Shown here one piece after another: positions 41,572 to 63,549 of a DNA stretch of 64,000 nucleotides. A model generated the notes under the pieces. It made no database searches. It was not told where the DNA came from and saw nothing but the letters and a program-made list of their open reading frames with translations. The first letter of the stretch is position 1, and each line of letters opens with the position of its first letter. Made by a program: the position numbers and the translations under genes. The stretch is from Candidatus Aenigmatarchaeota archaeon. Lineage in GTDB: Archaea > Aenigmatarchaeota > Aenigmatarchaeia > QMZP01 > QMZT01. The DNA is taken from positions 1 through 64,000 of the forward strand of contig JAPLVC010000002.1 of assembly GCA_026397315.1 (NCBI GenBank). The letters run 5' to 3'.

Positions 41572-41691
41572 TGGGCCGGGCAGGAATCGAACCTGCGGCC
41601 TTCGCGTTGTAAGCGCGACGTCATCTGCGGAACTTTTCCGTAAACGCTTTTGCGCGCACGCAAAAGGGTTTAACCGCTAGACTACCGGCCC
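41572..41691 (-). tRNA. tRNA-Val(TAC) with 47-nt D-loop intron (41625-41671)
   Basis: Acceptor GGGCCGG/CCGGCCC-A, anticodon arm TCGCG CT TAC AA CGCGA, T loop TTCGATT; BHB helix GCGG/CCGC with TTA and AGA bulges; 73 nt after splicing. Confidence 0.93.
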
Positions 41692-41715
41692 GATAAAACC
41701 AATATTATATTCAAT

Positions 41716-42903
41716 TTATATAAGTTTCATCTCTTTGCCTACTTTTTTGTAGACGTCGAGAGCGAACTGCAGGTCCTCCGTCGTGTGTTCAGCGGTCACG
41801 ATGTTCCTTATGCGCGCGGCGTCTTTAGCGACCAGCGGGAAGACTATCGGCTTGGCGAAAATGCCGTGCTCGAAAAGCGTCCTGCTCAGTTTCTGCGCGG
41901 TCGCGCTTTCGCCTACGATAACCGGTGTTATGGGAGTCTGGCTGTGGCCGATGTTGAAACCGAGATCGCGCAATCCCTCCTTGAAGAACTTCGTGTTCTC
42001 CCATAAGCGTTTGAGATGCTGCGGCTCGTCCTGCACAATCTTCAGCGCTTCCATTATCGCTCCCGTGACGCATGGCGGGTGCGCCGTGGTGAAGATGAAT
42101 GAGCGCGATCTGTTAATCAGGTAGTCTCTCAGCTCTTGACGACCAGCGATATAGCCTCCTAAACAACCGAACGCCTTGGAAAGCGTGCCCATGTCGATGT
42201 CGACTCTGCCGTGAAGATTGAAGTGATCCACGATGCCGCGGCCGTCCTTGCCGAGCACACCATCGCCGTGCGCGTCGTCGACCATGGTTATGGCGTCGTA
42301 TTTCTCCGCAAGCTCGACTATCTGGTCCAGCGGAGCGATATCTCCATCCATGCTGAAGACGCCGTCAGTCACGACAAGCCGGCGTTTCGCGGACTGTGTC
42401 TCTTTCAGCGCCTTCTCAAGACCTTCCATATTCATGTGCGGGTAAATCTTCTTCTCCGACTTCGTCAGTCGCACGCCATCGATTATGCTGCCGTGGTTCA
42501 GTTCATCGCTTATTATCGCGTCGCCCTCGCCCATGAGGACCTGTATCGTCCCGCGGTTCGCCGCGATGCCGGCGACGAAGATAAGCGACGCTTCAGTATG
42601 TTTGTATTTGGCGAGCATCTCTTCGGCCTCGTTGTGTATCTCCATGGTCCCGGCTATCTGGCGGACCGCTCCTGTTCCGAAGCCCCACTTGTCCATCGCT
42701 TTCTTCGCAGCCGCGGCGAGCCTCGGGTGGTTGGCGAAGCCGAGGTAGTTGTTCGTCGAAAGCGTAATCACTTTCTTGCCGTTGAGAGTGACGTGCGCGC
42801 CCTGCGGGCTGGTAAGCACCGGCAGCGTGGTGAAAAGATTCTCGCTTTTCAGTTTCTCCACTTCCTCCTTTAGAAAATGCAACCTGTTCTTATGGTCTGT
42901 CAT
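41716..42903 (-). CDS. kbl: Glycine C-acetyltransferase (2-amino-3-ketobutyrate CoA ligase)
   Basis: NNYLG.A, AVR.I.GT, SDELNH.SIIDG.RL, TDGVFSMDGD, DDAHG, GTLSKA, ARIR; GGAGGTG SD. Confidence 0.92.
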   Translation of the reverse strand: MTDHKNRLHFLKEEVEKLKSENLFTTLPVLTSPQGAHVTLNGKKVITLSTNNYLGFANHPRLAAAAKKAMDKWGFGTGAVRQIAGTMEIHNEAEEMLAKYKHTEASLIFVAGIAANRGTIQVLMGEGDAIISDELNHGSIIDGVRLTKSEKKIYPHMNMEGLEKALKETQSAKRRLVVTDGVFSMDGDIAPLDQIVELAEKYDAITMVDDAHGDGVLGKDGRGIVDHFNLHGRVDIDMGTLSKAFGCLGGYIAGRQELRDYLINRSRSFIFTTAHPPCVTGAIMEALKIVQDEPQHLKRLWENTKFFKEGLRDLGFNIGHSQTPITPVIVGESATAQKLSRTLFEHGIFAKPIVFPLVAKDAARIRNIVTAEHTTEDLQFALDVYKKVGKEMKLI

Positions 42904-43096
42904 CAAAACACCTCCGTAAACCTGAGAATAATAATTTCATTCATGGTATTAAAAAGGTGACGCTCCATTCGCTAGCGCCGCAAAAAATGTCAGCATCGAT
43001 AAATTTGCATATATTTTACGGTTGTAAAACGTCTGATTATTTAAACGTGCTTCAACATAAATATAATTATAAGAAAAATTTTAAAATCGCGGTAAC

Positions 43097-44386
43097 ATGG
43101 AAAGGAAAAAATTTCTTTTTGTCTCGATAGACGCGCTCATAGGCGACATAGCTTGGCAGGTTGTCAAGGAAGGCCACGAGGCTAAATATTTCATCGAAAC
43201 GCCCAGCGAAAAAGAGATTGCGGACGGCTTCGTGCCGAAATGCAACGACTGGAAAAAAGAGGTGGACTGGGCGGACGTCATAGTTTTCGACGACGTGCTC
43301 GGCCAGGGGACGCACGCCCAGAAGCTCAGGCAGGAAGGCAAGCTCGTCGTCGGAGGAACGCCTTACACAGACATGCTCGAGGACGACCGCGGCTTCGGCC
43401 AGGAAGAACTCAAGAAGGCGGGCGTCACTACGATTCCCAGCTGGAACTTCACTTCTTTCGACGATGCCATAGCCTTCGTCCAGGAGCATCCCGGTAAATA
43501 CGTCATCAAGCCGAGCGGCGAGGCGCAGAACATCAAGCAGCTGCTGTTCGTCGGCGAAGAGGACGATGGCAGGGACGTCATCCAGGTCCTTGAGCACTAC
43601 AAGAAAGCGTGGTCCGACCGCATCAAGGTCTTCCAGCTCCAGCGCAAGATCTCGGGCGTCGAAGTCGCAGTAGGCGCTTTCTTCAACGGCAGGGAATTCA
43701 TCTACCCGATAAACGTCAATTTCGAGCACAAGAAGCTTTTTCCGGGTAACATCGGACCGAGCACGGGCGAGATGGGCACGACCATGTTCTGGTCCATGCC
43801 CAACAAGATTTTCAACGCCACCCTCAAGAAGATGGAGCCGAAGCTCAAGGAGGAAGGGTATGTCGGCTACATAGACATCAACTGCATAGTCAACAGCTAC
43901 GGCATATATCCACTCGAGTTCACTTCGAGATTCGGCTACCCGACCATAAGCATACAACAGGAGTCGATGATAACACCCATAGGTCAGTTCCTGCACGAGA
44001 TAGCCAAGGGCAACGGCACCAAGTTCAAGGTGAGGAGCGGCTTCCAGGCCGGCGTGCGCGTCGTGACCTCGCCGTTCCCGTTCACGGACACGGAGACTTT
44101 CGAGACGAATTCCAAGGACGCGGTCGTGGTCCTGAAGAAGCCCAACATGGAAGGCATACACATCGAGGACGTCAAGCTGGTGAACGGCGAGTGGCTAATC
44201 TCCGGACATTCCGGAGTCGTGCTGATAGTCGTGGGCATGGGCTCTACCATGAGGCAGGCCCAGAACCAGGTCTACAACAGGATAAGCAACATACTCATAC
44301 CCAACATGTATTACAGGACGGACATCGGCGACCGATGGGTCGAGGACAGCGACAAGCTGCACGCATGGAGCTACCTCAGGGAGTAA
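43097..44386 (+). CDS. PurD-like ATP-grasp ligase (phosphoribosylamine-glycine ligase homologue)
   Basis: LE.DR.FG, YVIKP.G, G.EVAV, EHKK...G..GP.TGEMG, LEFT.RFGYP, YYR.DIG. Confidence 0.8.
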   Translation: MERKKFLFVSIDALIGDIAWQVVKEGHEAKYFIETPSEKEIADGFVPKCNDWKKEVDWADVIVFDDVLGQGTHAQKLRQEGKLVVGGTPYTDMLEDDRGFGQEELKKAGVTTIPSWNFTSFDDAIAFVQEHPGKYVIKPSGEAQNIKQLLFVGEEDDGRDVIQVLEHYKKAWSDRIKVFQLQRKISGVEVAVGAFFNGREFIYPINVNFEHKKLFPGNIGPSTGEMGTTMFWSMPNKIFNATLKKMEPKLKEEGYVGYIDINCIVNSYGIYPLEFTSRFGYPTISIQQESMITPIGQFLHEIAKGNGTKFKVRSGFQAGVRVVTSPFPFTDTETFETNSKDAVVVLKKPNMEGIHIEDVKLVNGEWLISGHSGVVLIVVGMGSTMRQAQNQVYNRISNILIPNMYYRTDIGDRWVEDSDKLHAWSYLRE

Positions 44387-44412
44387 CCAGAGCAGCTTTT
44401 CGAAAAATATTT

Positions 44413-45003
44413 TTATTCTTTGTATTCCAGCCCGAACCTGAAAGCCTTTATGTCTTTTTCAGGGTCTTTGGGCACGGTTCTCTTTATGGCCTCGATTATA
44501 GATTCCTTCTTCAGCGGCAGCATGCCGCTAGCGACGGCGAGCCCGAGCATCATCGTGTTGCCGTCGAGCGGGTCGCCGAGCTTCTGGTCGCATATGTGCG
44601 ACGCGTCGATGAAGACGAAGTTCTTGGCGAAAGGCGAAATCATCTGTTTTATTTTTTCGTAGGTCGGGTATTCCTTGTCGAAGAGATTCGCGTAGACGGG
44701 CTTGACCGGGTAGGTGTCGACGATGAAGTTCGTCCTGTCCTTGTGCGCGAAGTAGCAGAATCTCGCCGCCTCGAGCGGCTCCAGGGCGAATATCAGGTCG
44801 GCCTGCGCCCTCGGGATGAGCGGCGAATCGACGGCCTTGCCGAACCTCACGTGAGTCGGAATCGCTCCTCCGCGCTGCGCCAGGCCGTGCAGCTGCGTGC
44901 CACGAACATCGAAGCCCTCGAAGTTAGCGGCCCTGGCCACGATTACCGAAGTGAACAATACTCCTTCGCCTCCGACGCCTGCTATGAGAACATTATACGT
45001 CAT
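44413..45003 (-). CDS. iorB: Indolepyruvate:ferredoxin oxidoreductase beta subunit
   Basis: AGVGGEG, HGLAQRGG...HVRFG, LEPLEA.R, N.MMLG. Confidence 0.9.
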   Translation of the reverse strand: MTYNVLIAGVGGEGVLFTSVIVARAANFEGFDVRGTQLHGLAQRGGAIPTHVRFGKAVDSPLIPRAQADLIFALEPLEAARFCYFAHKDRTNFIVDTYPVKPVYANLFDKEYPTYEKIKQMISPFAKNFVFIDASHICDQKLGDPLDGNTMMLGLAVASGMLPLKKESIIEAIKRTVPKDPEKDIKAFRFGLEYKE

Positions 45004-46864
45004 TCTTTTTCCTCCTGGCAGCCGGGATTATCGCCCCGACCGGACAGACCTGCGCGCAGACGCCGCAGCCCCAGCAAAGGTCCTCGCGTATGTATACTTT
45101 ATCGCCCTCGTGCATGATGGCAGGGCACGCGAACTGCTTGACGCACGTCAGGCATTTCTTACACTTGCCCGGCGCGACCTGGAACTTCGAGAACTCGCCG
45201 CCCTGCTTCCTTAACAGGCGGCGCATGTAAAGCCTGCAGAGCCCGCGGGATATTATGACGCCCAGCTTGTCGGATGCAGACATCTCCTTTATCGCGGCCT
45301 GCAATTCCTTCTGGCTGAACGCGTTGACGATCTTGATGTTGGCGATGCCGAATGACCTGACGACGTCCTCGATTTTTATCGGCTCCTTTTTGTCGCCCAT
45401 GCCGGTGAAATCGCTTCCCGGATGGGGCTGGTGGCCGGTCATCGCAGTCACGCCGTTGTCGAGGATGACTATGATGGGCTTGGTGCCGTGGGCGACCGAG
45501 TTCACTAGCGGCGGCATGCCTGCGTGGAAGAATGTCGAGTCGCCGATGAAGACGACGACTTTCTGGTCGCTCACCTTCTGGATGCCGTGCGCCAGGCCGA
45601 TGCTCGAGCCCATTGAAACTATGAAGTCCTCCATCTTGTACGGCTCCTGTATGCCTAGGACGTAACATCCGATGTCGCCAGACCATACGGTCTGGTCACC
45701 CATCACTTTCTTTACTGCGTAGAAGGTCGACCTGTGCGGGCAGCCGGGGCAAAGCACCGCTTTCCTCGCTGGCAGGTCTATTTTCTTAAGATAAGCTTCG
45801 TGCATCGAGAAGTCGGGCTTCTTCGCCTTGAGGAACGGAGCTAGTGCCGATTGTATCGTCTCGGGATTGTATTCGCCGATGCGGGACAGAATGTCTTTGC
45901 CGTGTATCTCCGTGCGCGGGTTCACGTCCTTCGCGAGCGCGCGCACGAACTGCTCGACTACTGGTTCGAGTTCTTCGAGAACGAACACCCTATCGAGACC
46001 TTTCAGAAACTTGGTGACGAAGCTTCTGGAAATCGGGTACGTCATGACGAGCTTCGCTATCTTCACCCCTTTCAGGCCGTTGAGGTCTTTCTTTACTTCT
46101 TTCAGATACTGGTAGGAAACTCCGCTAGTTATTATGCCAATCTTCCCTTCGCCTTCAATCCTGTTGAGATAATCATAAGCCAGTTCTATCGTGTCTATCT
46201 TCTTGTTGAGGCGTTCGTGGAGTTGCTGCAGCGCCGGCGGCAAACAGTAGAAGCTTTCAGGGTCCTTGACGAAATTACCTTTGGTTTTCGGCTGCGGAAT
46301 TTTGCCGAGCTTGACCGTTCCAATAGAATGCGAGACCATCGTAGTCGTCCTCAGCATGACGGGAATCCTGTGCTTCTCGGAAATCTCGAAAGCAAGTTTC
46401 GTTAAATCCTTGCATTCCTGCGCGTTCGTTGGCTCGAGCGTCGGGATGAGGCCCATCCTTGCATAGAAGCGCGTGTCCTGCTCGGACTGCGCGGAACTGT
46501 GACCCAGCGGGTCGTCGGAGACCATTATGACCAGACCGCCTTTAACGCCCGTGTAAATAGTCGGCATCACAGAATCAATCGCGACATTGAGACCGAAGTG
46601 CTTCATCGCCGTGAGCGCGCGCACGCCGGAAAACGCGGCTCCGGCCGCGACTTCGTAAGCGACTTTCTCGTTCGTGCTCCACTCGAAATAGAATCCTGCT
46701 TGTTTGGCAATGGCAGAAAGCGCGATGCCGACTTCGGAGCTGGGCGTTCCCGGGTAGCATGCGGACAATCCCATGCCCGCCTCTATAGCGCCACGGGCGA
46801 TTGCTTCATTCCCCAGAAGAACGACCTTCTTCCCTTCCTTTTCCATCAAGTCCGGGTTCGCCAT
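44993..46864 (-). CDS. iorA: Indolepyruvate:ferredoxin oxidoreductase alpha subunit
   Basis: LLGNEAIARGA.EAG, YPGTPSSE, EWSTNEKVA, SAQSEQD.R, LCPGCPHR, DIGCY, GDSTFFH, C-terminal ferredoxin. Confidence 0.95.
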   Translation of the reverse strand: MANPDLMEKEGKKVVLLGNEAIARGAIEAGMGLSACYPGTPSSEVGIALSAIAKQAGFYFEWSTNEKVAYEVAAGAAFSGVRALTAMKHFGLNVAIDSVMPTIYTGVKGGLVIMVSDDPLGHSSAQSEQDTRFYARMGLIPTLEPTNAQECKDLTKLAFEISEKHRIPVMLRTTTMVSHSIGTVKLGKIPQPKTKGNFVKDPESFYCLPPALQQLHERLNKKIDTIELAYDYLNRIEGEGKIGIITSGVSYQYLKEVKKDLNGLKGVKIAKLVMTYPISRSFVTKFLKGLDRVFVLEELEPVVEQFVRALAKDVNPRTEIHGKDILSRIGEYNPETIQSALAPFLKAKKPDFSMHEAYLKKIDLPARKAVLCPGCPHRSTFYAVKKVMGDQTVWSGDIGCYVLGIQEPYKMEDFIVSMGSSIGLAHGIQKVSDQKVVVFIGDSTFFHAGMPPLVNSVAHGTKPIIVILDNGVTAMTGHQPHPGSDFTGMGDKKEPIKIEDVVRSFGIANIKIVNAFSQKELQAAIKEMSASDKLGVIISRGLCRLYMRRLLRKQGGEFSKFQVAPGKCKKCLTCVKQFACPAIMHEGDKVYIREDLCWGCGVCAQVCPVGAIIPAARRKKNDV

Positions 46865-47046
46865 ACAAACCGCCTAACCCCAAAACCAAAAGCCAGGAGC
46901 CACCCCAAGGCCCCAAACCCTCAGCAAGATTTCGATTATTATTGCTTTATGACTTTCGTGTCGAATCCTCGATAATCTCCGATATAATATATTGAACAGA
47001 ACCAGTTAAATATATTGTAAGTCTCGAATGTTCAAGAGGTGGTGTC

Positions 47047-47640
47047 ATGAAAAATCAAATCAAACATCAGGACAAACGGCAAAACAATGATTCCGATGAT
47101 TTTCTGAAAGTCATTCACGGCAGGAAAAGCGTGCGTAACTACACGGGCGCGCCTGTCAGCAATGACGACATCGAAGACCTTTTGCGCGCAGGCATGGCCG
47201 CGCCGAGCGCGGTCGACAGGCGGCCATGGTCTTTCATCGCCGTGACCGAGCGGGAGACGCTGGACAGACTATCGAAAGCGACGCCGTTCAGCGGCATGCT
47301 GAAGAAGGCCGGCGCTGCTGTAATCGTGTGCGGCATTCCCATGAAATCGCTGGTGAAGATGAAGCTCATCAACCTCGTCGCTGGCGTTTCGAACGATTAC
47401 TGGGTGCAGGACTGCTCGGCTGCCACAGAAAATATACTATTAGCAGCCGAGGCAAAGGGGCTTGGCGCGGTATGGATAGGCATACATCCCGTAGAAGCTA
47501 AAGTAGAAACTGTCAGGAAAATTCTCAACATCCCGGACAACGTCACGCCGCTGAACATCATATCAATCGGCCATCCGCTAGGGACGGAAAAACCGAAGAA
47601 CAAGTTCGACGAGAACAATATCCACTGGGAGCATTGGTAG
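47047..47640 (+). CDS. Nitroreductase family protein
   Basis: RKSVRNY, APSA..RRPW.F, QDCSAATENILLAA...GLG.VW.G. Confidence 0.92.
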   Translation: MKNQIKHQDKRQNNDSDDFLKVIHGRKSVRNYTGAPVSNDDIEDLLRAGMAAPSAVDRRPWSFIAVTERETLDRLSKATPFSGMLKKAGAAVIVCGIPMKSLVKMKLINLVAGVSNDYWVQDCSAATENILLAAEAKGLGAVWIGIHPVEAKVETVRKILNIPDNVTPLNIISIGHPLGTEKPKNKFDENNIHWEHW

Positions 47641-47644
47641 TGAT

Positions 47645-47778
47645 TCACGGTATTATCTCGCAGCCGTTGTATATGACGTGCTCGAAACGTGCGTTTCCTC
47701 CATGTCGTCCAGCGGCTTATGGTAACAGTATTCACACTTCCCGTTGCACGCGGTCGTAAGTATCACGTGATAGAACAT
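47645..47778 (-). pseudogene. Internally deleted radical SAM/SPASM gene remnant
   Basis: MFYHVILTTACNGKCEYCY (CxxxCxxC) followed after about 10 codons, in another frame, by RFEHVIYNGCEIIP*. Confidence 0.7.
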
Positions 47779-47814
47779 ATTCTGTGGGTGTTTCAATGAA
47801 ATAAAAATATATAT

Positions 47815-48282
47815 TCAGGCCGTTTCGGGTTGCTGTGAAAGTCGCCTTAATTCTTTCCTCGTTTTCCTCGCGTTCTTTACCACACGATCGGCTATCGGGC
47901 ACGGTGTCTCTCGCTGGTTGTTCTTCCATTCCAGCCTGTTGTATATCTCTTCTCCCGCTTCGTCCCGGATAATAAGAACAAAATCCCTGTTGTTTTCACT
48001 TTTGTCTTGCTGTGTATAGTCCCAGTGAACTATGTGGTAATGTGCCGCTCTTCCGCTCTCGTCGAGTTCCCCGATGTAGAAAAAATCCCTGGAAGGCTCG
48101 AACATCAGCGTGGCGGTTTCCGTCTTTAGTTTTCCGAGGTTGTTCCTGCTGACGGTTATTTTTTTGCCCACATACTTTTCCAGCATGTCTGAAGGATATA
48201 TTTTTCCAGCTTGTGACGCGGGCTCTTCTATATATCCATTCTTTCCGAAGATGCCTCTGAAAATCTTTAGTGGTTTATACAT
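47815..48282 (-). CDS. Hypothetical protein
   Basis: 155 aa ORF with TATA-like TTTAAATA upstream. Confidence 0.5.
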   Translation of the reverse strand: MYKPLKIFRGIFGKNGYIEEPASQAGKIYPSDMLEKYVGKKITVSRNNLGKLKTETATLMFEPSRDFFYIGELDESGRAAHYHIVHWDYTQQDKSENNRDFVLIIRDEAGEEIYNRLEWKNNQRETPCPIADRVVKNARKTRKELRRLSQQPETA

Positions 48283-48413
48283 CAATTAAAAGTTTTTTTC
48301 TATATTTAAATACCAAGCCTTTCCACAAATTGCACCAAATTTTATAGTGATTTTACGGATTTTTCAGAAAAATAACTAAATATTTATATATTTAAATAAA
48401 CAAATATGTTTAC

Positions 48414-48671
48414 ATGGATAATGTTGTGGTTTTCAGGGCGCTTGCCGACCCCACGCGGCTGAAGATACTCGAATTGCTCAGGAGCGGTGAGAGATGCGCA
48501 TGCGAACTCCCTTCGAAAGTGGGAAAGTCACAGCCCAACGTTTCGCTGCACCTCAAGATACTGAAAGACGCCGGCATAATTTCCAGCAGGAAAGACGGCA
48601 AGAAAATAATATATTCGGCCACTAAATCTGAAATTTACAAGATAATAGAAAGAGCGAAAAACATAAAGTGA
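48414..48671 (+). CDS. arsR: ArsR/SmtB family regulator
   Basis: FRALADPTRLKIL, CACEL, SQPNVSLHLKIL. Confidence 0.9.
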   Translation: MDNVVVFRALADPTRLKILELLRSGERCACELPSKVGKSQPNVSLHLKILKDAGIISSRKDGKKIIYSATKSEIYKIIERAKNIK

Positions 48672-48680
48672 AGTGATTGC

Positions 48681-49790
48681 ATGGAAAACCGGAATGTTTT
48701 CATTATTTTGGTTGTCGTATTTCTGGCGCTATATTTCATGCCTGTCGGCTCGCAGCTTTTCGACGGCGCCATACTCAGCGCTTTCTCGCTGCTCCACGAA
48801 TACGCGACGCAGCACGTGATAACGTGCCTCATTCCTGCGATGTTCATAGCGGGCGCGATTTCAGTTTTCATCAAAAAAGACGCCGTCATCAAATACATGG
48901 GGCCGTCCGCGAAAAAATACGTCTCATATACCATCGCCTCGGTGTCGGGAGCGATACTCGCGGTCTGCTCGTGCACCGTCCTTCCGCTATTCGCCAGCAT
49001 ACGCAAGCGCGGAGCGGGCCTGGGGCCTGCCATAGCATTTCTCTATTCCGGTCCGGCGATAAACATAACGGCAATGTTTCTCACCATAAGCGTGCTCGGG
49101 GTGCAGATAGGGATTGCCAGAATCGTAGCATCCATTTCGCTGTCAATACTGGTGGGTCTGACCATGGCCTTCATTTTCAAGGAAAAGTCCGGCACCGGCA
49201 AGTGGAAGCTCAAAAAGACCAAGGCGAAACCTGATTCGAAGCTTTTCGTCTCGCTTCTTTTCGTGTCGCTCGTAGGCGTGCTCCTGGTGAACGGGCTGCA
49301 AATCAATTTGCCGGTTAAGTATTCCATGATGGCCGCGCTTTCCGTGGCCGCGGCGCTAGTTGGTATTTTTGGCATGCAGAGGCGGTCGTCAGAGGAATGG
49401 CTGGGGCACACGTGGTTCTACGCCAGGAAGCTCATACCGCTGCTTTTCATAGGCGTCTTCATAGCAGGCGTGGTCATGTTCCTCGTACCCGACGAATTCA
49501 TCAGGTCGGTCGCTGGCGAGAACACCATCATGAGCAACGTCGCCGTCTCGATATTCGGCGCTTTCATGTATTTTTCGACGCTCACGGAAATACCGATACT
49601 GCAGGCGCTCATAGCGAAAGGGATGCATCCCGGTCCCGCCCTAACGCTACTGCTTTCCGGCCCGGCCCTTAGCCTGCCGAGCATGCTCGCGATAAGGGAG
49701 TTCCTCGGCAACAGGAAAACGATAGCCTATGTCTTATTGGTAATATTATATTCTGCCGCGGCGGGCCTTGTTTTCGGAATGCTTGTATAG
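48681..49790 (+). CDS. ArsP/DUF318-family permease
   Basis: HVITCLIPA.FIAGAI, VCSCTVLP.F, FLYSGPAIN, MYF.TLTE.PI, GPALSLPSML. Confidence 0.88.
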   Translation: MENRNVFIILVVVFLALYFMPVGSQLFDGAILSAFSLLHEYATQHVITCLIPAMFIAGAISVFIKKDAVIKYMGPSAKKYVSYTIASVSGAILAVCSCTVLPLFASIRKRGAGLGPAIAFLYSGPAINITAMFLTISVLGVQIGIARIVASISLSILVGLTMAFIFKEKSGTGKWKLKKTKAKPDSKLFVSLLFVSLVGVLLVNGLQINLPVKYSMMAALSVAAALVGIFGMQRRSSEEWLGHTWFYARKLIPLLFIGVFIAGVVMFLVPDEFIRSVAGENTIMSNVAVSIFGAFMYFSTLTEIPILQALIAKGMHPGPALTLLLSGPALSLPSMLAIREFLGNRKTIAYVLLVILYSAAAGLVFGMLV

Positions 49791-49844
49791 CGCTTTGGCT
49801 AAAGCCTTTTGAAAATTAAAAATAAGAAAACGTGAGGCAAAAAA

Positions 49845-55543: not shown

Positions 55544-55651
55544 ACCGAATCACCATTTCTTTACCGTTAAAACTTGCAGGATTTTTATCTTATTTTTCCT
55601 GAAGATACTTTGCAGAAACAGACTAGTAAAGTAAATCTTTTCCAAGATTAA

Positions 55652-55774
55652 TGCGCCGACCGGGATTTGAACCCGGGTTAGAGGCTTTTTCCATCAGTGG
55701 TTGCCGGATGCATCGAAACCCGCTGGGGTTTTGATTTGGGAAGCCCCTGTCCTACCAGGCTAGACTATCGGCGC
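55652..55774 (-). tRNA. tRNA-Gly(CCC) with 50-nt canonical 37/38 intron (55687-55736)
   Basis: Acceptor GCGCCGA/TCGGCGC-A; GGGGC TT CCC A^A GCCTC; BHB helix TTCC/GGAA. Confidence 0.94.
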
Positions 55775-55932
55775 AAACAGCGAATGACGCAGACAAGCCT
55801 GCGTCGAACTGTCGGGTGTTCTATAATATATTAGAATATAATAAAAGACTTTCAGTGCATGGAGCTGAAGCCGTGGCTATAGGGAGAAATAAAAAGAAAA
55901 AGCACTGTTTTTGTCCCAACCCTATTAAGCCT

Positions 55933-56307
55933 TTATTTTTTTCTTTTCAGTTCAGGGCTTATCAGGAGAAGGACTGCTCCTATGAGCTCCGGTGCGCCGA
56001 TGGGCGGAAGGAATGCTGATATGAGTGCGTATATGGCCACTCCCTGGTAATCCTTTGCCTTGAATTTGCCAAGGCCTTTCCAAAGGACTATCATGCCCGC
56101 TATTGCTAGCAGGCCGAAAGCGGTCAAAGCTCCTGCCAGGACCCATGTGAAAGGTGCTATTCCGAGAGTCATGCTGACATTCGTCACCGGCACAAGGCCG
56201 CCGAATATCACTATTATGCCGACTAATTTCAGCAGCAGACCCACGAGAATAAGGACCTTCGCTATCGTCGCTTCGGTACTCAACCCTTTGAAGTTGATGT
56301 CTATCAT
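55933..56307 (-). CDS. Hypothetical membrane protein
   Basis: 3-4 hydrophobic helices. Confidence 0.6.
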   Translation of the reverse strand: MIDINFKGLSTEATIAKVLILVGLLLKLVGIIVIFGGLVPVTNVSMTLGIAPFTWVLAGALTAFGLLAIAGMIVLWKGLGKFKAKDYQGVAIYALISAFLPPIGAPELIGAVLLLISPELKRKK

Positions 56308-56391
56308 ATTATATAATTCCCCCGATTCCCCTAATAAATCAAAAACAGTCGCTTGCTGACGTTTATTAGCGGTTTTGGCAAAATAATCATT

Positions 56392-57435
56392 ATGAAAAAA
56401 ATAAGTTTCGTTTTCGGCATATCCCTTGTTTTTGTTGTTTTTTTGTCAGGTTGCATCAACGTCAGCCCAGAAGCGCTAGCGATGGCGAACCCTCTGGTGA
56501 AACAGTTCATGGAACAATATCCAAATGCGAAAATAACCGTGAACCATTTCACCAAGGACCAGAGCGCCCAGATACTTGAGAACATAAGCGCTGAATGCGG
56601 CAACCCATACATAACCGCGAAAGAGTTTTACAGGATAAGCATCGACGACCCGGACAGCGGGCTAAAAGCGTTAGCTTGGATTGACTGGGAAACCAGGGGA
56701 ATAGAATGTGCCGTGAAATATGGCGGCGGCCTGAACAAGACGATATCCAAGCCCGGCGAAGAAAACCAGGACTGCAAGTCTCACGCTGAGATGAAATGCT
56801 ACGGCGAGCATGTATATTGGTTCGATTCGTGTGGCCACAAGGAAGAGAAGAAAGAATACTGCACATCCGGTTGCGAGAACGGCTTCTGCAAAACCAAGGA
56901 AGGCTGCACTGAGCATGCTGAGGCGAAATGTGCCGACGGGCACGTGTACTGGTATGACAGCTGCAACGGCAAGGAAGACAAAAAAGAGTACTGCCAGAAC
57001 GGCTGCGAGAACGGCGCATGCAAAGGCGGCACGGAAAAGACCTGCTTAAACGAAGGGGAAAGCAAACCCGTCATCGCGAACCCGCTGCCATGCTGCGAAG
57101 GCCTGACACTAATCCCTCCGAAGGCGGAAAACCTGGTAGGCATATACGGATACTGCACCGCGAAATGCGGCAACGGCATTTGCAATGAAATCGAGACCGC
57201 ATACAACTGCCCGTCAGACTGCGGCAATATCAATTGCACAGACTCCGACGGCGGCAGGAACTATTCCGTGAAAGGGACGGCGACAGTTGCCGGCCAGTCG
57301 CTCACGGACCATTGCAACGAAGACGGTTCGCTTACCGAGAAATACTGCGAGAACAACGAGATAAAAGCCGAGTCAGTCTCCTGCCCGACAGGCTTCAAGT
57401 GCGACGACGCGAAGTGCGTGGAAGAAACAGTATAA
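56392..57435 (+). CDS. Secreted/lipoprotein Cys-rich repeat surface protein
   Basis: LSGC lipobox-like signal; two tandem C..HAE.KC...HVYW.DSC..KE.KKEYC..GCENG.CK repeats; CGNGIC and CTDSDGG modules. Confidence 0.8.
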   Translation: MKKISFVFGISLVFVVFLSGCINVSPEALAMANPLVKQFMEQYPNAKITVNHFTKDQSAQILENISAECGNPYITAKEFYRISIDDPDSGLKALAWIDWETRGIECAVKYGGGLNKTISKPGEENQDCKSHAEMKCYGEHVYWFDSCGHKEEKKEYCTSGCENGFCKTKEGCTEHAEAKCADGHVYWYDSCNGKEDKKEYCQNGCENGACKGGTEKTCLNEGESKPVIANPLPCCEGLTLIPPKAENLVGIYGYCTAKCGNGICNEIETAYNCPSDCGNINCTDSDGGRNYSVKGTATVAGQSLTDHCNEDGSLTEKYCENNEIKAESVSCPTGFKCDDAKCVEETV

Positions 57436-57445
57436 AAAAGAGAAA

Positions 57446-57529
57446 CGCTGAGAGCAAGACTCGAACTTGCGCGGGCTATTCACCCACAGGGTTAGCAACC
57501 CTGCGCCTTGACCGCTCGGCCATCTCAGC
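57446..57529 (-). tRNA. tRNA-Ser(GCT), intronless
   Basis: GCTGAGA/TCTCAGC-G, CAGGG TT GCT AA CCCTG, long variable arm. Confidence 0.95.
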
Positions 57530-58169
57530 AGATTAATATTTCGTCCGCACTTATTTCAGCGAACTTTTTTTGTTTTGCATTATTATGTGGGTTTATCTCT
57601 TTAAAAAATCTTTCCATGTTCTTTCTGCCGGCCATGCGTATTTTCAGGTTGCTTTTTTCGAGCCAGAAATGAAAATCAAGGTCGCGCAGGATCTCCTTGA
57701 GCTGCATAAGGTGCGCGAGCGACGGGCTGGAGATTTCTAATATGGGATTCCTGTATTCCCCGGACGTGCGGCGTAGGTAGAGCGAGCCGCTCGAGTCGAA
57801 CATACCCCTCACATACGCCTTCCAGTATTCGTGGTTGTTGAAAATCAGCTTCGGCATGCGGAGCGCGTGCGCCTTCCTGCCTATAGGGAACTGGAGATAC
57901 GTATGGAAAGTCTTCACCGCCCGCCCGCCGCACGCGCGGATGCAGATCACGTATCCGTCCTGATATTTCCTTTTGACGAGCTTTAGCTCCCTGCCGAAAA
58001 TCTTTTCAAAGAGCGGTTTTACGTGGCTTCGATAATATTGCATTTCATCCTTCGTGCTCCTGATTTCCAGGATGTAGCTTCTAGCGGTTGCATAGATGCT
58101 GCCGTCGCCCGCGAATATGCCGCACGCCTCGCCCAGCGTGTCCTTGTTGAGCGAAAGTAATTCAAACAT
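57525..58169 (-). CDS. Stand-alone two-motif LAGLIDADG endonuclease-like protein
   Basis: ACGIFAGDGSI and YVRGMFDSSGSL motifs; G.K....MP; FF.EI.PHN. Confidence 0.85.
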   Translation of the reverse strand: MFELLSLNKDTLGEACGIFAGDGSIYATARSYILEIRSTKDEMQYYRSHVKPLFEKIFGRELKLVKRKYQDGYVICIRACGGRAVKTFHTYLQFPIGRKAHALRMPKLIFNNHEYWKAYVRGMFDSSGSLYLRRTSGEYRNPILEISSPSLAHLMQLKEILRDLDFHFWLEKSNLKIRMAGRKNMERFFKEINPHNNAKQKKFAEISADEILIC

Positions 58170-58289
58170 AATTGTTATTTGCGGGTCATGGTTTAAATAT
58201 CCGCGCCTTAAAGTCACAAACTTTATAAAGCCACCGGATGAATTAAATAACAGATAAATTTTTCAGAAAATCGATTGAGAGGTGGGTAT

Positions 58290-58592
58290 ATGGCAATAAA
58301 AGTTTCGAGCATTTCCGAGACGTACGGCAAGGACGTTTTCACGAACAGGGGTATGTTCTGCGGAAAAGTCGAGGATATCGAGTGCGACCTCAAGCGCTTC
58401 AAGGTTCGCTCACTGGTCGTGCGTGCTGCAAAGGAGTCTTACATATCCAAGATGCTCGGCAGCAAGAAGGGCGTTATCATCCCGTTCCCAATGGTAGAAT
58501 CCATAGGCGACGTGATACTGATAAAGCACATCTCGCTTCCGGTCGCGGATGAAGAGCCCGCAAAAGAGGGCGCTGCGTCAGAATCTGAATAA
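58290..58592 (+). CDS. PRC-barrel domain protein (CdpB-like)
   Basis: YGKDVFT..G...GKVEDI; IIPF.MV.SIGDVILIK. Confidence 0.85.
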   Translation: MAIKVSSISETYGKDVFTNRGMFCGKVEDIECDLKRFKVRSLVVRAAKESYISKMLGSKKGVIIPFPMVESIGDVILIKHISLPVADEEPAKEGAASESE

Positions 58593-58621
58593 ATCCCGAT
58601 AAAAAAGAAAAATTTCGCAGT

Positions 58622-59671
58622 TTAGAATATAGGGATATCCTTGGACAGGACTTCTGTCCTCTTCTTCTTTATTAAAATCACGTCTTCAAGCCTTACGCCT
58701 CCGATACCTTTTATGTAAACGCCCGGCTCTATGGTCATTACAGTGTTTTCCGCGAGCGTCTCGCCCTGCGGCTCGTGGACGGAAAGTCCCAGCCCGTGGC
58801 CGAGGCCGTGCAATACCGTGTAGCTTTTTTTCGCGTAAAGTTTTTTCTGGAGATCTTCCAGCTCGCTGTAAGTCACGCCCGCGCGTGCGGCGTATATGAG
58901 TTCGTCGTGTATCTGCTTGACGTCTTCGTATATCTTCTTCTGGACTGGGCCGAGTCTCGTGAAAAACATGCGCGTTATGTCTGAGCAATAGCAGTCGACG
59001 ATACATCCCGTGTCTATGAGGACCGGGGCTTTCGCTTTCGCGAGCGTCTCGCCTGGCTTGTGGTGGACGAACGCAGCCTGTTTGCCTGCGCAGACGATGG
59101 ACTCAAACGACTCGCTAGCACCGCGCTTCCTGTATTCTATCTCTATCGCGTCCGCGATCTGCTTTTCGCTGTTGCCCCATAGAAAGCCGCCGACGTTTTG
59201 TAAGACGTCTCCCGTCAGCCTTATCGCCTCTTTAATCTGCGCTATTTCAAACTCGTCCTTCTGGATGCGCGGGATTTCCATTATCTTGCCGGCGGGCTCC
59301 AGCCTGGCCTTCAGTTTTTTCTTCATGGCCCTGAAAAGCAGGAGGCTTAGCGTCCGCTCGTCGTAGCCCATGCGCTTGAATCCGCCGAGCTGGCGGATGA
59401 AGTCGTCCTTGTCCCGGATGTATGTTATGTCAGGATATTTTGAGGCGGCATCGTTCTCAAGCGGCGAAACGAAAAGCTTCGGCCTGCCGCTGTCCTGGAA
59501 AAGCATGAAGATCCTGTCGTCCTTCAGGCCGGCATACCCAGTGTAATAGAACACGTCGTGCGGGTCGGAGGTTATTACCGCGTTCAGGCCGCTTTTCTGG
59601 ACTAACGCTTTCAGTCGCCTTTGCCTCGCCGCGAAGTCTGGCTTCATATAATATTCTTGGTCCAAGCCCAC
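58622..59671 (-). CDS. Xaa-Pro dipeptidase (M24B)
   Basis: R.QKD..EI, ID.G....YCSDITR, HGLGHGLGL.VHE, TIEPGVY, GVRLED. Confidence 0.92.
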   Translation of the reverse strand: MGLDQEYYMKPDFAARQRRLKALVQKSGLNAVITSDPHDVFYYTGYAGLKDDRIFMLFQDSGRPKLFVSPLENDAASKYPDITYIRDKDDFIRQLGGFKRMGYDERTLSLLLFRAMKKKLKARLEPAGKIMEIPRIQKDEFEIAQIKEAIRLTGDVLQNVGGFLWGNSEKQIADAIEIEYRKRGASESFESIVCAGKQAAFVHHKPGETLAKAKAPVLIDTGCIVDCYCSDITRMFFTRLGPVQKKIYEDVKQIHDELIYAARAGVTYSELEDLQKKLYAKKSYTVLHGLGHGLGLSVHEPQGETLAENTVMTIEPGVYIKGIGGVRLEDVILIKKKRTEVLSKDIPIF

Positions 59672-59745
59672 TAAAAAAGCATAGCGGATGCATAAAGCTT
59701 AAATTACATTAATTGAAGATATTATAATCCTTAACGTGGTGCCTC

Positions 59746-60570
59746 ATGAATTACAGCGTTCCTGATATGAAAAAGCTCGCTACCGAGATAAGAAAGGACA
59801 TAATCAGGATGACGTGCGAAGCCGGTAGCGGACACCCTGGCGGCTCTCTTTCTTCCGTGGAAATAATGGTTTCCCTTTACTTCAATGTCATGAAGCACGA
59901 CCCGAAAAACCAGGCTTGGGACGACCGTGACCGCTTCGTGCTTTCGAAAGGGCATGTCTGCCCTGTTCTTTACGCTTCTCTCGCCAGACGAGGATACTTC
60001 CCGCCGGAAGAGTTGATGACTCTCAGGAAGTTCGGCTCGCGGCTGCAAGGGCATCCGCACAGGCTCAAGCTTAGCTGCCTCGAGACTTCTTCAGGTTCGC
60101 TGGGCCAGGGCCTTTCCATCGCAAGCGGGATGGCAATCGGCCTGCGCATGGACAAGAAAAGCCCGCGCGTCTACTGCCTGATGGGCGACGGCGAGTTGCA
60201 GGAAGGCCAGGTGTGGGAAGCCGCGATGACCGGCGCTCACTACAAGCTGGACAACCTCTGCGGCATCGTCGATGTCAATGGCCTGCAGATAGACGGCAGG
60301 ACCAGCGACGTGAAGAACCTGGAGCCGCTCGCGGACAAGTGGAAGGCGTTCGGCTGGCATACTATCGAAGTGGATGGTCACAACGTCGAGGCGCTTATCA
60401 GCGCGTTCCGCGAGGCTGAGCGGACGAAGGGAAAGCCCACGGTCATACTTGCAAAGACAGTCAAAGGCAAGGGCGTCTCCTTCATGGAAAACAAAGCCGA
60501 ATGGCACGGCAAGCCGCCCAGCAAAGAAGAAGCCGCGAAAGCACTGAAAGAACTTGGAGAGACATGCTGA
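59746..60570 (+). CDS. Transketolase N-terminal subunit
   Basis: SGHPGGSLS, RDRFVLSKGH, LQGHP, GSLGQG, GDGE..EGQ.WEA. Confidence 0.95.
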   Translation: MNYSVPDMKKLATEIRKDIIRMTCEAGSGHPGGSLSSVEIMVSLYFNVMKHDPKNQAWDDRDRFVLSKGHVCPVLYASLARRGYFPPEELMTLRKFGSRLQGHPHRLKLSCLETSSGSLGQGLSIASGMAIGLRMDKKSPRVYCLMGDGELQEGQVWEAAMTGAHYKLDNLCGIVDVNGLQIDGRTSDVKNLEPLADKWKAFGWHTIEVDGHNVEALISAFREAERTKGKPTVILAKTVKGKGVSFMENKAEWHGKPPSKEEAAKALKELGETC

Positions 60571-60581
60571 AGTGATGTTTT

Positions 60582-61586
60582 ATGACAGAAAAAAAATCCG
60601 GATTGAACGAGACGCTGCACCTAGCTCCTAATATTTACGATAAGGTCGAGAAGATACCCACGAGGAACGGCTTCGGCCACGGACTAGTCGAACTGGGCCA
60701 CGCGAACAAGAACGTCGTCGCCCTTTGCGCCGACCTTTCCGATTCGACGCGCGCGCTCTGGTTTGCCGAGAAATTTCCCGACAGGTTCATAGAAGTCGGC
60801 ATTTCGGAGCAGGACATGATGGGCATCGCTGCGGGTCTCGCCGCCGTAGGCAAAATACCATTCCTAAGCACATACGGCGTCTTTTCGACAGGACGCGCGT
60901 GGGACCAGATGAGGACGACGGTCGCATACGGCGATTTCAATGTAAAAATCGCGAGTGCGCACGGCGGCATCTCGGTAGGCGCGGACGGCGCGACGCACCA
61001 GTCTCTGGAGGAGATCGCTTTGTCCCGCGTGCTGCCCAACATGAAAGTCATAGTGCCCGCGGACTACTGGGAGTCGAAGAAGGCGACTATCGCTTCCGCC
61101 TCGATTCATGGCCCCATAGTCATACGCTTCGGCCGCGAAAAAGTGCCGGTCATAACTACGGAGAAGACGCCGTTCGTTTTCGGGAAAGCCGAAACGTTCA
61201 GGTTCGGGAACGACGTCACAGTCTTCGCGTGCGGCCCGATGGTTTACGAGGCGCTCATTGCCGCGAAGGAACTTGAAAAGAAAGGCATTGACGTGCGCGT
61301 GGTCAACATGCACACGGTCAAGCCGCTCGACGAGAAGGCGATAATAGACGCGGCGAAAGAGACGGGCGCGATAGTCACGGCCGAAGAGCACCAGGTCAAC
61401 GCGGGCTTCGGCTCTGCAATCGCGGAAGTCGTGGTCGAGCACTATCCGGTGCCCATGAAACGCGTAGGTGTGATAGACCGCTTCGGCGAGTCGGGCGAGC
61501 CGGACCAGCTCATGGTGGAATTCAATCTCAAGAGCACGGACATAATAAAGGCGATAGAGGACGTGCTCAGCCGCAAGAAAAAATAA
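60582..61586 (+). CDS. Transketolase C-terminal subunit
   Basis: ADLS.ST, GISEQ, G.DGATHQ, VKPLD, EEH....G.GS. Confidence 0.95.
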   Translation: MTEKKSGLNETLHLAPNIYDKVEKIPTRNGFGHGLVELGHANKNVVALCADLSDSTRALWFAEKFPDRFIEVGISEQDMMGIAAGLAAVGKIPFLSTYGVFSTGRAWDQMRTTVAYGDFNVKIASAHGGISVGADGATHQSLEEIALSRVLPNMKVIVPADYWESKKATIASASIHGPIVIRFGREKVPVITTEKTPFVFGKAETFRFGNDVTVFACGPMVYEALIAAKELEKKGIDVRVVNMHTVKPLDEKAIIDAAKETGAIVTAEEHQVNAGFGSAIAEVVVEHYPVPMKRVGVIDRFGESGEPDQLMVEFNLKSTDIIKAIEDVLSRKKK

Positions 61587-61623
61587 TCTTTTCGTGGATG
61601 CAACATGATTAAAAGGGATTCTT

Positions 61624-62874
61624 ATGGGCACTAATGCGAGAATAGCTGAAAGGATGTCGAGGCTTGGAACCGAAACGGCGTTTTCCGTTTCTCTCGAAGC
61701 ACGGGAGTTTGCGTGCAAGGGCAAAAAAATCTATCCTTTTCATCTCGGCGACATGAACATCAGGACACCCAAGAAGATTATTGATGCGGCTAGGAAAGCT
61801 ATGGAAGACGGCAAAACAGGCTACTGCCCCAGTGCAGGCATCCCAGAACTCAGGGAGGCGCTGGCCAAAGACATGAGCAGCTCGCGCGGCATAAAGCTCA
61901 CGGCGAAAAACGTATCGATACAGATGGGCGGCAAGCCAGTAATAATGAAGTTCGTCATGGCTTTCATGAATCCGGGGGACGAGGTGCTGTACCCGAATCC
62001 CGGATACCCGATTTACGAGTCGCAGATCCGCTTCCACGGAGGTATAGTGAAACCTTACGGTTTCAAGATGATTGACAAGGGCTTCAGCTTGGACATGGAA
62101 CAGCTCGAGACGCTTGTCACACCGAAGACCAAACTGTTCATATTCAACAACTATCACAACCCTATGGGCGCGGAATCCGACCCGTTGGAGATGAAGAGAA
62201 TCGCCGATTTCTGCAAAAGGCACGACCTGCTCGTGCTGAGCGACGAGGCGTATTTCGACATCACATACGACGGCAAGCCCAAGAGCATAGTTTCCTACCC
62301 AGGCATGGCCGAGCGCACGCTGATACTTTACACGTTCTCCAAGAAGTTCGCCATGACGGGCTGGCGGCTTGGGGCGGCTGTAGGGCCGGAATGGATGATA
62401 GAGCAGATTAACCGCCTGAACGTGAATGACGAGTCGTGTTCGAACCACTTCATCCAGTGGGCCGCTGTCGAGGCGCTCAAAAACACGCAGAAGGAAACGC
62501 AACAGATACTCGACACACTGAAAAAACGCAGGGACCTTGCGTGCAAGATGCTCAGCACCATAAAGGGCATCAGAGTTTTCAAGCCCAACTCGACTTTCTA
62601 CATCTTCCCGGACGTGACCGAGGCGATGCGCAACCTGGGTTTCAACGACGTCGAAAAGTTCAGGAGGTTCATACTGGAGACGACGGGCGTATCCTTCTGC
62701 ACGCGACGCCATTTCGGGACGCCGCTGGATGACGAGAAGCACGAGTTCATCCGCCTCGCTTATTCCGGCATCGACCTGAAGGACATCAGGGAAGGCCTGG
62801 CGAAGATGAAAAGCGCGATTGAGAACCCGGAAATTTCAAAAAGATGGGTTTCCGAAAAAAGCACAAAGCCTTGA
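61624..62874 (+). CDS. Class I/II PLP aminotransferase (aspartate aminotransferase-like)
   Basis: GIPELREA, NPGDEV, HNP.G, SDEAY, FSKKFAMTGWRLG. Confidence 0.92.
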   Translation: MGTNARIAERMSRLGTETAFSVSLEAREFACKGKKIYPFHLGDMNIRTPKKIIDAARKAMEDGKTGYCPSAGIPELREALAKDMSSSRGIKLTAKNVSIQMGGKPVIMKFVMAFMNPGDEVLYPNPGYPIYESQIRFHGGIVKPYGFKMIDKGFSLDMEQLETLVTPKTKLFIFNNYHNPMGAESDPLEMKRIADFCKRHDLLVLSDEAYFDITYDGKPKSIVSYPGMAERTLILYTFSKKFAMTGWRLGAAVGPEWMIEQINRLNVNDESCSNHFIQWAAVEALKNTQKETQQILDTLKKRRDLACKMLSTIKGIRVFKPNSTFYIFPDVTEAMRNLGFNDVEKFRRFILETTGVSFCTRRHFGTPLDDEKHEFIRLAYSGIDLKDIREGLAKMKSAIENPEISKRWVSEKSTKP

Positions 62875-63062
62875 ACTGGGCATGAAAGCAATGGAGAACA
62901 ACAAGATCCCTTAAATCCGATTTTTAATTCATGATCGAAGAATCAATTATTACCCCATTTTTTTTGTAAAATCTAAAATAAATACAAATAGATAGCGTAG
63001 ATGTTTTACTTGGTCCATTTTTTTATAGGCGGTTATGCCAGTATCAACATTCCCAAGAAGTA

Positions 63063-63299
63063 ATGAAATTCGATATAAATAAATATGGTGAAAATATCGT
63101 AAAGAAAAAATTCGAGATGGAAATAGAAATCCCTAACAATTCGGAAGCCGAGTTCAACCAGATAATGGAATGGGTCAGGGACAAGAGCCACAACGACAGG
63201 TGGAAGTTCGTGAAGAGAGCCTCGGCCAACAACGATTTCCTGATGTGGAAGCTGAAGAAGAAGATGGCTGCGATCAAACCCGGCTTGGCAAAAATCTGA
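63063..63299 (+). CDS. Hypothetical protein
   Basis: 78 aa ORF with host-like codon usage in its 3' half. Confidence 0.45.
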   Translation: MKFDINKYGENIVKKKFEMEIEIPNNSEAEFNQIMEWVRDKSHNDRWKFVKRASANNDFLMWKLKKKMAAIKPGLAKI

Positions 63300-63389
63300 A
63301 CCCGGCCCATGCTTTTTATTTTACTATTATCTCTAGCGTAGCCTTTTGACCAAAGCTTCGCCAATCATTTTAGCGTGCAAAAAAACCAA

Positions 63390-63549
63390 TGGGGCCGCTG
63401 GGATTCTCAAAGCCATTTTCCGCAAACGCTTTTGCGCGAGGCGGAAAAGGGTTTATTTGAACCCAGGTCGCCAGCACCCCAAGCTGGAATGATCATGGCG
63501 TCAAGCTCAAAAGCTCGAGGATGACTAGACCAAGCTACACTACGGCCCC
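63390..63549 (-). tRNA. tRNA-Pro(GGG) with two non-canonical introns: D-loop 33 nt (63494-63526) and T-loop 59/60 52 nt (63404-63455)
   Basis: GGGGCCG/CGGCCCC-A; CCAGC TT GGG GT GCTGG; BHB helices TGGT/GCCA and TTCA/TGAG; 75 nt after splicing. Confidence 0.9.

Follow-up and report, generated by a model that had tools for sequence, protein, structure and literature searches.

Transposition of tRNA introns has been described in the Thermoproteales, where its mechanism is given as unknown and is thought to act at the level of DNA (Fujishima et al. 2010, Mol Biol Evol 27:2233, as related in PMC4090602). In the DPANN archaeon ARMAN-2 (Ca. Micrarchaeum), tRNA-Pro(GGG) carries an intron at position 59/60, and the tRNA-splicing endonuclease cleaves both strict and relaxed bulge-helix-bulge (BHB) motifs in vitro, including that of a 59/60 intron, according to the account available to us (PMC3239211). 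As hosts of the epsilon2 form of this enzyme, EndA, a 2018 paper lists Micrarchaeum and Mancarchaeum only (PMC5829648). In bacteria, the repeats PIT, BoxC, and TMECO, which are G/C-rich and have been characterised as DNA, are tied to genomic instability in the portion of the study consulted (Holder et al. 2015, PMC4666352). A 2026 census of introns in Asgard archaea tested several routes of intron arrival and found none to be general (bioRxiv 10.64898/2026.10.13.758758). Here we analyse a 64,000-nucleotide (nt) stretch of DNA, positions 1 to 64,000 of contig JAPLVC010000002.1 of a Candidatus Aenigmatarchaeota archaeon (hereafter, the window), and report that an intron of its tRNA-Val(TAC) gene and an intron of its tRNA-Pro(GGG) gene share a cassette of ~38 nt that appears to belong to a structured repeat family spread across archaeal phyla.

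Pairwise alignment of the two introns reveals identical blocks of 11 nt (T followed by AAACCCTTTT), 15 nt, and 7 nt, with order and spacing preserved. A preliminary description of the window had reported the same intron core in the Val D-loop and in the Pro T-loop at 59/60, with a first block of 10 nt, and this core is recovered here with one further nucleotide; of the two positions given there, 41625 is the 3′ end of the Val intron and 63455 the 5′ end of Pro intron 2. Chance likeness, low-complexity sequence, or an assembly chimera might be suspected behind such a match, the blocks being rich in A/T tracts and default ARAGORN and Rfam searches giving no clean tRNAs at the loci. However, the 1.05-Mb assembly, in seven contigs, contains exactly two occurrences of the 15-mer, one in the Val intron and one in the Pro intron, against a chance expectation of ~0.002 for an exact 15-mer; family models detect the copies with E-values of ~1e-9; the Val locus is found with its intron in the independent assemblies of two same-genus genomes (G002 and G003) and the Pro locus in one of them (G003); and the predicted spliced products are perfect tRNAs. 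We reject this explanation on the rarity of the 15-mer, the independent assemblies, and the perfect spliced tRNAs, and regard its probability as negligible.

Intron junctions were placed by the BHB rule, i.e. a 4-bp central helix between 3-nt bulges, with cutting after the second bulge base. A permissive BHB scan alone yields many chance matches, and junctions were accepted only where ARAGORN and an intron-less ortholog agreed. BHB geometry, comprising the 4-bp helix and two 3-nt bulges, is present at all five intron junctions of the Val and Pro genes and of a third gene, tRNA-Arg(TCG), located elsewhere in the assembly (Table 1). Specifically, the Val intron has a GCGG/CCGC central helix, TTA and AGA bulges, and an h′ helix of 3 bp; Pro intron 1 has a TGGT/GCCA central helix, CTA and TGA bulges, and an h′ helix of 4 bp; and Pro intron 2 has a strict hBHBh′ motif, in which the T stem serves as h (5 bp), with a TTCA/TGAG helix and AAT bulges on both sides. 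The account of the introns given in the preliminary description holds for the Pro 59/60 intron and was incomplete for the gene as a whole, since Pro(GGG) also contains an unrelated 33-nt intron in its D-loop.

Table 1. Coordinates of the tRNA genes, introns, cassette copies, and splicing endonuclease gene. Positions are those of the window unless a contig is given.
Feature	Position	Strand	Details
tRNA-Val(TAC) gene, one intron	41572..41691	minus	120 nt
tRNA-Val exon 1	41691-41672	minus	
tRNA-Val D-loop intron	41671-41625	minus	47 nt, directly 5′ of A21
tRNA-Val exon 2	41624-41572	minus	
Cassette copy 1 (Val)	41634..41671	minus	38 nt; nhmmer E=6e-11, covariance model R1 E=2.7e-9
Val-specific tail	41625..41633	minus	9 nt
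tRNA-Pro(GGG) gene, two introns	63390..63549	minus	160 nt
tRNA-Pro exon 1	63549-63527	minus	
Pro intron 1, D-loop, 5′ of A21	63526-63494	minus	33 nt; sequence unrelated to cassette
tRNA-Pro exon 2	63493-63456	minus	
Pro intron 2, T-loop 59/60	63455-63404	minus	52 nt
tRNA-Pro exon 3	63403-63390	minus	
Cassette copy 2 (Pro)	63416..63454	minus	39 nt; nhmmer E=8e-12, covariance model R1 E=1.7e-9
Pro-specific tail	63404..63415	minus	12 nt
tRNA-Arg(TCG), two introns	G000:C6:135656-135516 (this assembly)	minus	ARAGORN call Lys(ctt) corrected
epsilon2-type tRNA-splicing endonuclease gene	34559..35746	minus	395 aa; PF01974 (E=9.5e-28) and PF02778

Each of the two cassette-bearing introns can be divided into a conserved part and a part fitted to its exon. 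The Val copy has the form N3-CCC-T4-stem-loop-A4-GCG-N′3-A-CGG-A4 and is followed by a tail in which 3 nt pair with the start of the intron and the remainder makes up the 3′ strand of the central helix plus two bases of the bulge; the sequence of this tail is unlike those of the Pro and Arg tails. The Pro tail pairs with the 5′ end of the cassette, then gives TGAG and two bulge bases. The proposal of a conserved core with an exon-adapted tail, and of 3′ ends tailored to form GCGG/CCGC helices in Val and TTCA/TGAG helices in Pro, is borne out at both loci: the two helices are present with 3-nt bulges on both sides, and the last six bases of the tail comprise the exon-pairing strand and 3′ bulge bases.

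In silico splicing followed by ARAGORN yields cloverleafs for Val(tac) (73 nt), Pro(ggg) (75 nt), and Arg(tcg) (74 nt). The spliced Val product is identical in sequence to the intron-less Val(TAC) gene of the same-genus genome G004, and the T-loop of the Pro gene is uninterrupted in G002 and G004 and matches the predicted spliced Pro junction. RNAfold places the Val central helix in the unconstrained minimum-energy fold, and the cost of forcing all BHB motifs is 0.9 kcal/mol for Val, 4.1 kcal/mol for Pro, and 2.6 kcal/mol for Arg. By these sequence criteria both window introns are genuine BHB introns, predicted to be spliced by protein. Standard searches handle the same genes poorly: Rfam at default settings gives only a partial tRNA match at the Val locus and misses Pro at the gathering score, and ARAGORN misses Pro(GGG) by default and in intron mode assigns Val to Ala(tgc) and Arg(TCG) to Lys(ctt). 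Because standard finders miss or miscall such genes, the tRNA complements of metagenome-assembled genomes (MAGs) of DPANN archaea are under-counted.

The window also contains the gene of the enzyme expected to excise these introns. The encoded 395-residue EndA has catalytic and N-terminal domains and matches PDB entry 4fz2_A over its full length (E=3.3e-104), a structure that we take to be that of the three-unit epsilon2 EndA of ARMAN-2. The host was described beforehand as DPANN-like, and the best tblastn matches of its proteins, at 70–85% amino-acid identity, are to contigs of Candidatus Aenigmatarchaeota. A full-length epsilon2-type EndA gene is present here in an Aenigmatarchaeota-like genome; Micrarchaeum and Mancarchaeum are the only hosts on the 2018 list (PMC5829648). 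Splicing in the host organism, which we infer, is well founded, because strict and relaxed BHB motifs, one of them at 59/60, are substrates of the ARMAN-2 enzyme in vitro, and because tRNA-Pro(GGG) of ARMAN-2 itself carries a 59/60 intron.

A search of the whole assembly with nhmmer and a covariance model reveals exactly three copies of the cassette, all of them in tRNA introns: the two in the window and a third, found by the genome-wide search that the preliminary description had suggested, in tRNA-Arg(TCG). The Arg cassette intron is 52 nt long and lies in the D-loop, at the same site as the Val intron; the gene has a further intron, of 15 nt, at the canonical position. Beyond its A tract, the Arg cassette intron repeats the hexamer with which the Val intron terminates; a stretch of 9 nt comes next and provides the Arg intron with a helix of its own. 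The Val-type hexamer is absent from the ortholog of the Arg intron in G004.

The cassette is not confined to this genome. A BLAST search of the Val locus against 40 relatives matches the intron core in other genera and families, beyond the exons. Alignment of extracted copies gives the plan N3-CCC-T4-(variable stem-loop)-A4-GCG-N′3-R-CGG-A4, of ~38 nt, and an exact-pattern scan covering one genome per prokaryote species finds at least 120 such stretches in MAGs of at least 10 archaeal lineages, with ~3 estimated by chance. Among the matches listed, nearly all are archaeal, and the lineages represented include Aenigmatarchaeota, Micrarchaeota, Woesearchaeota, Iainarchaeota, Nanoarchaeia, and Nanohaloarchaea, together with Altiarchaeota, Hadesarchaea, Methanocellales, Methanosarcinales, and Methanophagales/ANME-1. 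A covariance model (R1), built from an alignment of 106 distinct copies, finds the cassette in 50 of 61 order-level genomes, with 11 lacking a match, and the number of copies per genome ranges from 0 to 49 (3 in the genome of the window, G000; 40 in G033; 49 in G050; and 46 in G060). Rfam, searched at E≤1 on three cassette-rich loci, returns tRNA only and no family for the cassette, and our literature search found no published description of such a cassette.

Evidence for a conserved structure comes from covariation. In the 106 distinct copies, 89.5% of hairpin positions are paired, compared with 76.2% in shuffles (none of 500 shuffles reaches the observed value), and the covariation score is 0.332, compared with at most 0.103 for slid registers. 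The N3/N′3 pairing, which was left free in the search pattern, is Watson-Crick or GU in 155 of 162 copies, and its outer pair takes all four Watson-Crick forms (AU in 35, CG in 26, GC in 21, and UA in 18). The anchors CCC, GCG, and CGG and the A and T tracts are near-invariant across phyla, and the stems covary. The core shared by Val and Pro is, to judge from these comparisons, a widespread structured repeat family of variable copy number and is not private to the two genes.

Copies of the cassette are found at the heads of introns and in other settings. We removed candidate introns that start at a cassette and have a 4-bp central helix, in the manner of SPLITS, and submitted the products to ARAGORN; this validates 43 of 169 copies as tRNA introns, a lower bound, as multi-intron genes escape the test. 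The validated introns occupy the D-arm, positions at or close to 37/38, the variable arm of class II tRNAs, and 59/60, and are spread over tRNAs of at least 15 amino-acid specificities; the cassette starts 0–2 nt after the 5′ splice site. The T-loop motif GTTCRA directly precedes 28 of the 169 copies, and inside ARAGORN tRNA predictions 36 copies are in the sense orientation and 1 is antisense. In relatives, cassette-headed insertions also interrupt 16S rRNA (L040:4606-4652; L017:175-217; L011:208-249 and 369-416), at two different sites in conserved regions, one of them common to two genera, and interrupt a conserved region of 23S rRNA (L021:198-234). One copy lies just after a tRNA 3′ end (L013). 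Two tandem arrays are present, one of four units with a 40-nt period inside a single tRNA intron of G033 (contig C4, L009:234-400) and one of three units with a 71-nt period beside the end of an open reading frame (ORF) in an Altiarchaeum MAG (L043:4886-5070). In Methanophagales/ANME-1 MAGs (L046, L050, L066, L083, L102, and L114), a polypurine/polypyrimidine variant of the cassette occurs outside tRNA genes, often between convergent genes and 2–10 nt downstream of a co-oriented ORF.

Comparison with same-genus genomes indicates turnover of introns at both window sites, in agreement with the mobility proposed in the preliminary description. The Val D-loop intron is present in G000, G002, and G003 and absent from G004 and from the outgroup G014, the Val gene of which has a different, T-loop intron instead. 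The Val ortholog of G001 (L005) contains a 17-nt intron of unrelated sequence, offset by a few bases from the cassette site, and that of G003 (L003) has an additional 43-nt intron at or beside the canonical 37/38 position; among five congeners, tRNA-Val(TAC) shows four intron states. The cassette intron of the Pro T-loop is found, among the same-genus genomes compared, only in G000 and G003; at this site G001 has an unrelated intron, and G004 has a cassette intron in the D-loop of its Pro gene. Pro intron 1 is kept in G002, G003, and G004, with its 3′ part also seen in G001, where the contig ends, and looks older than the T-loop intron. The distribution suggests that the introns at both window sites were gained within the genus, with the choice between gain and loss at the Val site resting on one outgroup. 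Because the Pro intron is common to G000 and G003 and the Val intron is also present in G002 and G003, both introns predate the split of G000 and G003 (flanking DNA 87–91% identical), and the gains are not very recent.

The preliminary description had gone further and read the identity of the Val and Pro introns as recent mobility between the two genes, and this part is not supported. The Val and Pro cores are 87% identical, but copies that are as close or closer are found in other families and phyla: identity reaches 95% between the Pro core and a copy in G033, from another family of the order, and 89% between the Val core and copies in G033 and a Micrarchaeota MAG. By this measure, the Val and Pro copies of G000 are not each other's closest relatives. 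Because the core is a widely conserved cassette, the Val/Pro identity would reflect family membership and cannot, on these comparisons, date copying between the two genes. Direct recent transposition in this genome, in which one intron was copied to the other tRNA and its 3′ tail then adapted, would account for three identical blocks in different isoacceptors at different positions, and the hexamer common to the Arg intron and the 3′ terminus of the Val intron could be the remnant of a Val-type donor. Against this stand the closer copies elsewhere, apical stems that differ between Val and Pro, the age of both introns relative to the G000/G003 split, the sharing of the Val intron with G002 (flanks ~75% identical), and the absence of the hexamer from the G004 ortholog of the Arg intron; we consider such an event improbable. 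The non-loop part of the Val cassette is identical in G000 and G002 despite the divergence of the flanks, which points to constraint or gene conversion.

We propose that the window introns are two-part introns, each consisting of a conserved cassette of ~38 nt and a short, locus-specific tail. The cassette, which starts 0–1 nt past the 5′ splice site, would fold as a hairpin closed by the covarying N3/N′3 pairs and followed by the conserved CGG-A4. The last six bases of the tail would provide the 3′ strand that pairs with the upstream exon in the 4-bp central helix, together with two of the bases in the 3′ bulge. Cleavage in both bulges would be by the epsilon2 endonuclease (gene at 34559-35746), and a ligase would then join the exons. 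The cassette itself would be a dispersed repeat that heads introns at many tRNA and rRNA positions and also occurs outside genes; the window introns would have arrived within the genus by copying at the DNA level, and such insertions would have persisted because insertion and tail together form a structure that an endonuclease of relaxed specificity can cut. We assign this explanation as a whole a probability of roughly 0.7.

Several results weigh against the account of copying and retention just given. The filled and empty Val and Pro sites have no target-site duplication beyond a 1-nt ambiguity, and across the 61 genomes the number of copies does not track the presence of a Y1 transposase or of a reverse transcriptase. 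In particular, the Y1 transposase (PF01797) is present in 9 of 61 genomes and was not found in G000–G004, G033, G050, or G060, and the reverse transcriptase (PF00078) is present in 10 of 61 and was not found in G000, G002, G003, G033, G050, or G060, all of these being draft genomes. The ~75% flank identity of G001, G002, and G004 alike does not settle the branching of the genus beyond G000 and G003, and for this reason gain and loss at the Val site are told apart by one outgroup. In addition, the near-invariance of the anchors exceeds the obvious needs of a purely selfish repeat and may reflect a function of the RNA or DNA fold.

Two specific candidates for the nature of the repeat were rejected. 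An IS200/IS605-type hairpin element (PATE- or REP-like) is not supported, as the Y1 transposase (TnpA/RAYT) was not found in G000–G004 or in the three genomes richest in the cassette. A general terminal inverted repeat, in which the tail would be complementary to N3 and CC, is seen in 23 of 148 copies, compared with 17.6 ± 3.5 for shuffled N3, and is not significant; complementarity of the tail to the start of the cassette does hold in some individual introns.

The fold of the cassette bears on the question of function. For the window copies, RNA folding gives two competing, ordinary antiparallel folds: one in which the T tract pairs with the first A tract, which is the family-wide hairpin and is backed by the N3/N′3 covariation, and one, preferred for Pro, in which the second A tract takes over the pairing with the T tract and leaves the first as a tetraloop. 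Across the family, past the invariant A4, the tract that follows CGG mirrors the purine arm at pyrimidine-purine pairs. Specifically, T-A pairs are matched by A in the third tract in 129 of 150 cases and C-G pairs by G in 75 of 146; at other pair types the third tract has G in 9–25% of cases, and G-C pairs show no preference. This pattern is the signature expected of a purine-motif intrastrand triplex, in which case the complementary strand would carry the pyrimidine-motif plan. The window copies have no bearing on a triplex either way, their third tract consisting only of A4 and ordinary antiparallel folds being available. A search for literature joining archaeal tRNA introns and triple helices returned nothing relevant.

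These observations are also open to a different interpretation, in which selection maintains the cassette chiefly as a functional nucleic-acid fold and its presence in introns reflects recruitment and vertical inheritance with losses. As candidate roles, the cassette might act as a surrogate h′ helix and A-tract that presents the 5′ bulge to the endonuclease, might bind a processing protein, or might form a triple-stranded fold from its T4, A4, and A4 tracts. The near-invariant anchor bases and covarying stems, the constant placement 0–2 nt from the 5′ splice site, the strong sense orientation in tRNA genes, the conservation of the Val core between G000 and G002, and the mirroring of the purine arm by the third tract all favour selection on a fold. 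However, the range of 0 to 49 copies among close relatives and the 11 genomes lacking a match indicate that the cassette is dispensable; intron-less alleles of the same tRNAs occur in same-genus genomes; the tandem arrays and the copies outside genes resemble the behaviour of a repeat; and in the window the mirror tract is only A4, with the best folds pairing the T tract antiparallel with either A tract. We consider a primarily functional fold somewhat unlikely, and prefer the dispersed-cassette explanation. A further reading, which we advance only tentatively and hold to be less likely than not, is that the cassette is a pan-archaeal 'intron seed': a gene-less, possibly triplex-forming element that copies itself into the loops of stable-RNA genes and the ends of genes and survives in tRNA and rRNA genes because, with a short tail, it forms a site that the endonuclease can cut. 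If true, the intron seed would represent a general, still active route of BHB intron gain in archaea.

The locus provides a defined sequence family as a lead on the gain of tRNA introns in archaea. Intron gain would be testable here by experiment and by comparison, because close relatives offer both filled and empty sites, the splice site sets a constant 5′ boundary for the cassette, genomes of ~1 Mb carry anywhere from 0 to 49 copies, and the gene of the cognate endonuclease lies in the window; a rule separating conserved from exon-adapted sequence is a further asset.

Two other elements of the window resemble intron modules distinct from the cassette. The tRNA-Gly(CCC) gene (55651-55775, minus strand) has an intron of ~50 nt at the canonical position that consists of a different module; this module recurs twice in a multi-intron tRNA of the relative G009 (L023) and appears to represent a second intron family. 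At 23083-23160 (plus strand), a perfect hairpin (6-bp arms around T5/A5) lies between genes; an A-tract comes after it, and then a GC-rich segment that is also present inside a T-loop intron of the relative G017 (L022). The element looks like a solo copy of another intron-type module between divergent ORFs.

The three known systems introduced above each share some features with the cassette family and differ in others. The intron families of the Thermoproteales, as far as they are set out in the source used here (PMC4090602), are similar in that like introns occur in different isoacceptors and at different positions of one genome, here the Val D-loop, the Pro T-loop, and the Arg D-loop, and in that intron gain is read in both cases as late and as limited by the requirement for a BHB motif. 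In contrast to those families, the host here is a DPANN archaeon in which EndA is of the epsilon2 and not the (alpha-beta)2 type; conservation is limited to the 5′ two-thirds of the intron, which form a defined structured cassette; this cassette is shared across phyla and is also present at the heads of rRNA introns, outside genes, and in tandem arrays; and the Val and Pro copies of G000 are, by identity, not each other's closest relatives. ARMAN-2 resembles the present host in being a DPANN archaeon with a 59/60 intron in tRNA-Pro(GGG) and an EndA that the window protein matches over its full length (E=3e-104); it belongs to a different phylum, and the account of it drawn on here describes no shared intron cassette (PMC3239211). 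The nearest published analogue of the third-tract signature among the sources consulted is the group of bacterial intrastrand triplex repeats PIT, BoxC, and TMECO (Holder et al. 2015). As described in the part of that study available to us (PMC4666352), these are short dispersed repeats of very uneven copy number, as is the cassette, and at family level the cassette has a third tract that mirrors the purine arm of its hairpin, the plan that an intrastrand triplex would require. Unlike the bacterial repeats, the cassette is archaeal, A/T-rich, strand-biased at RNA genes, and, within introns, predicted to be spliced out.

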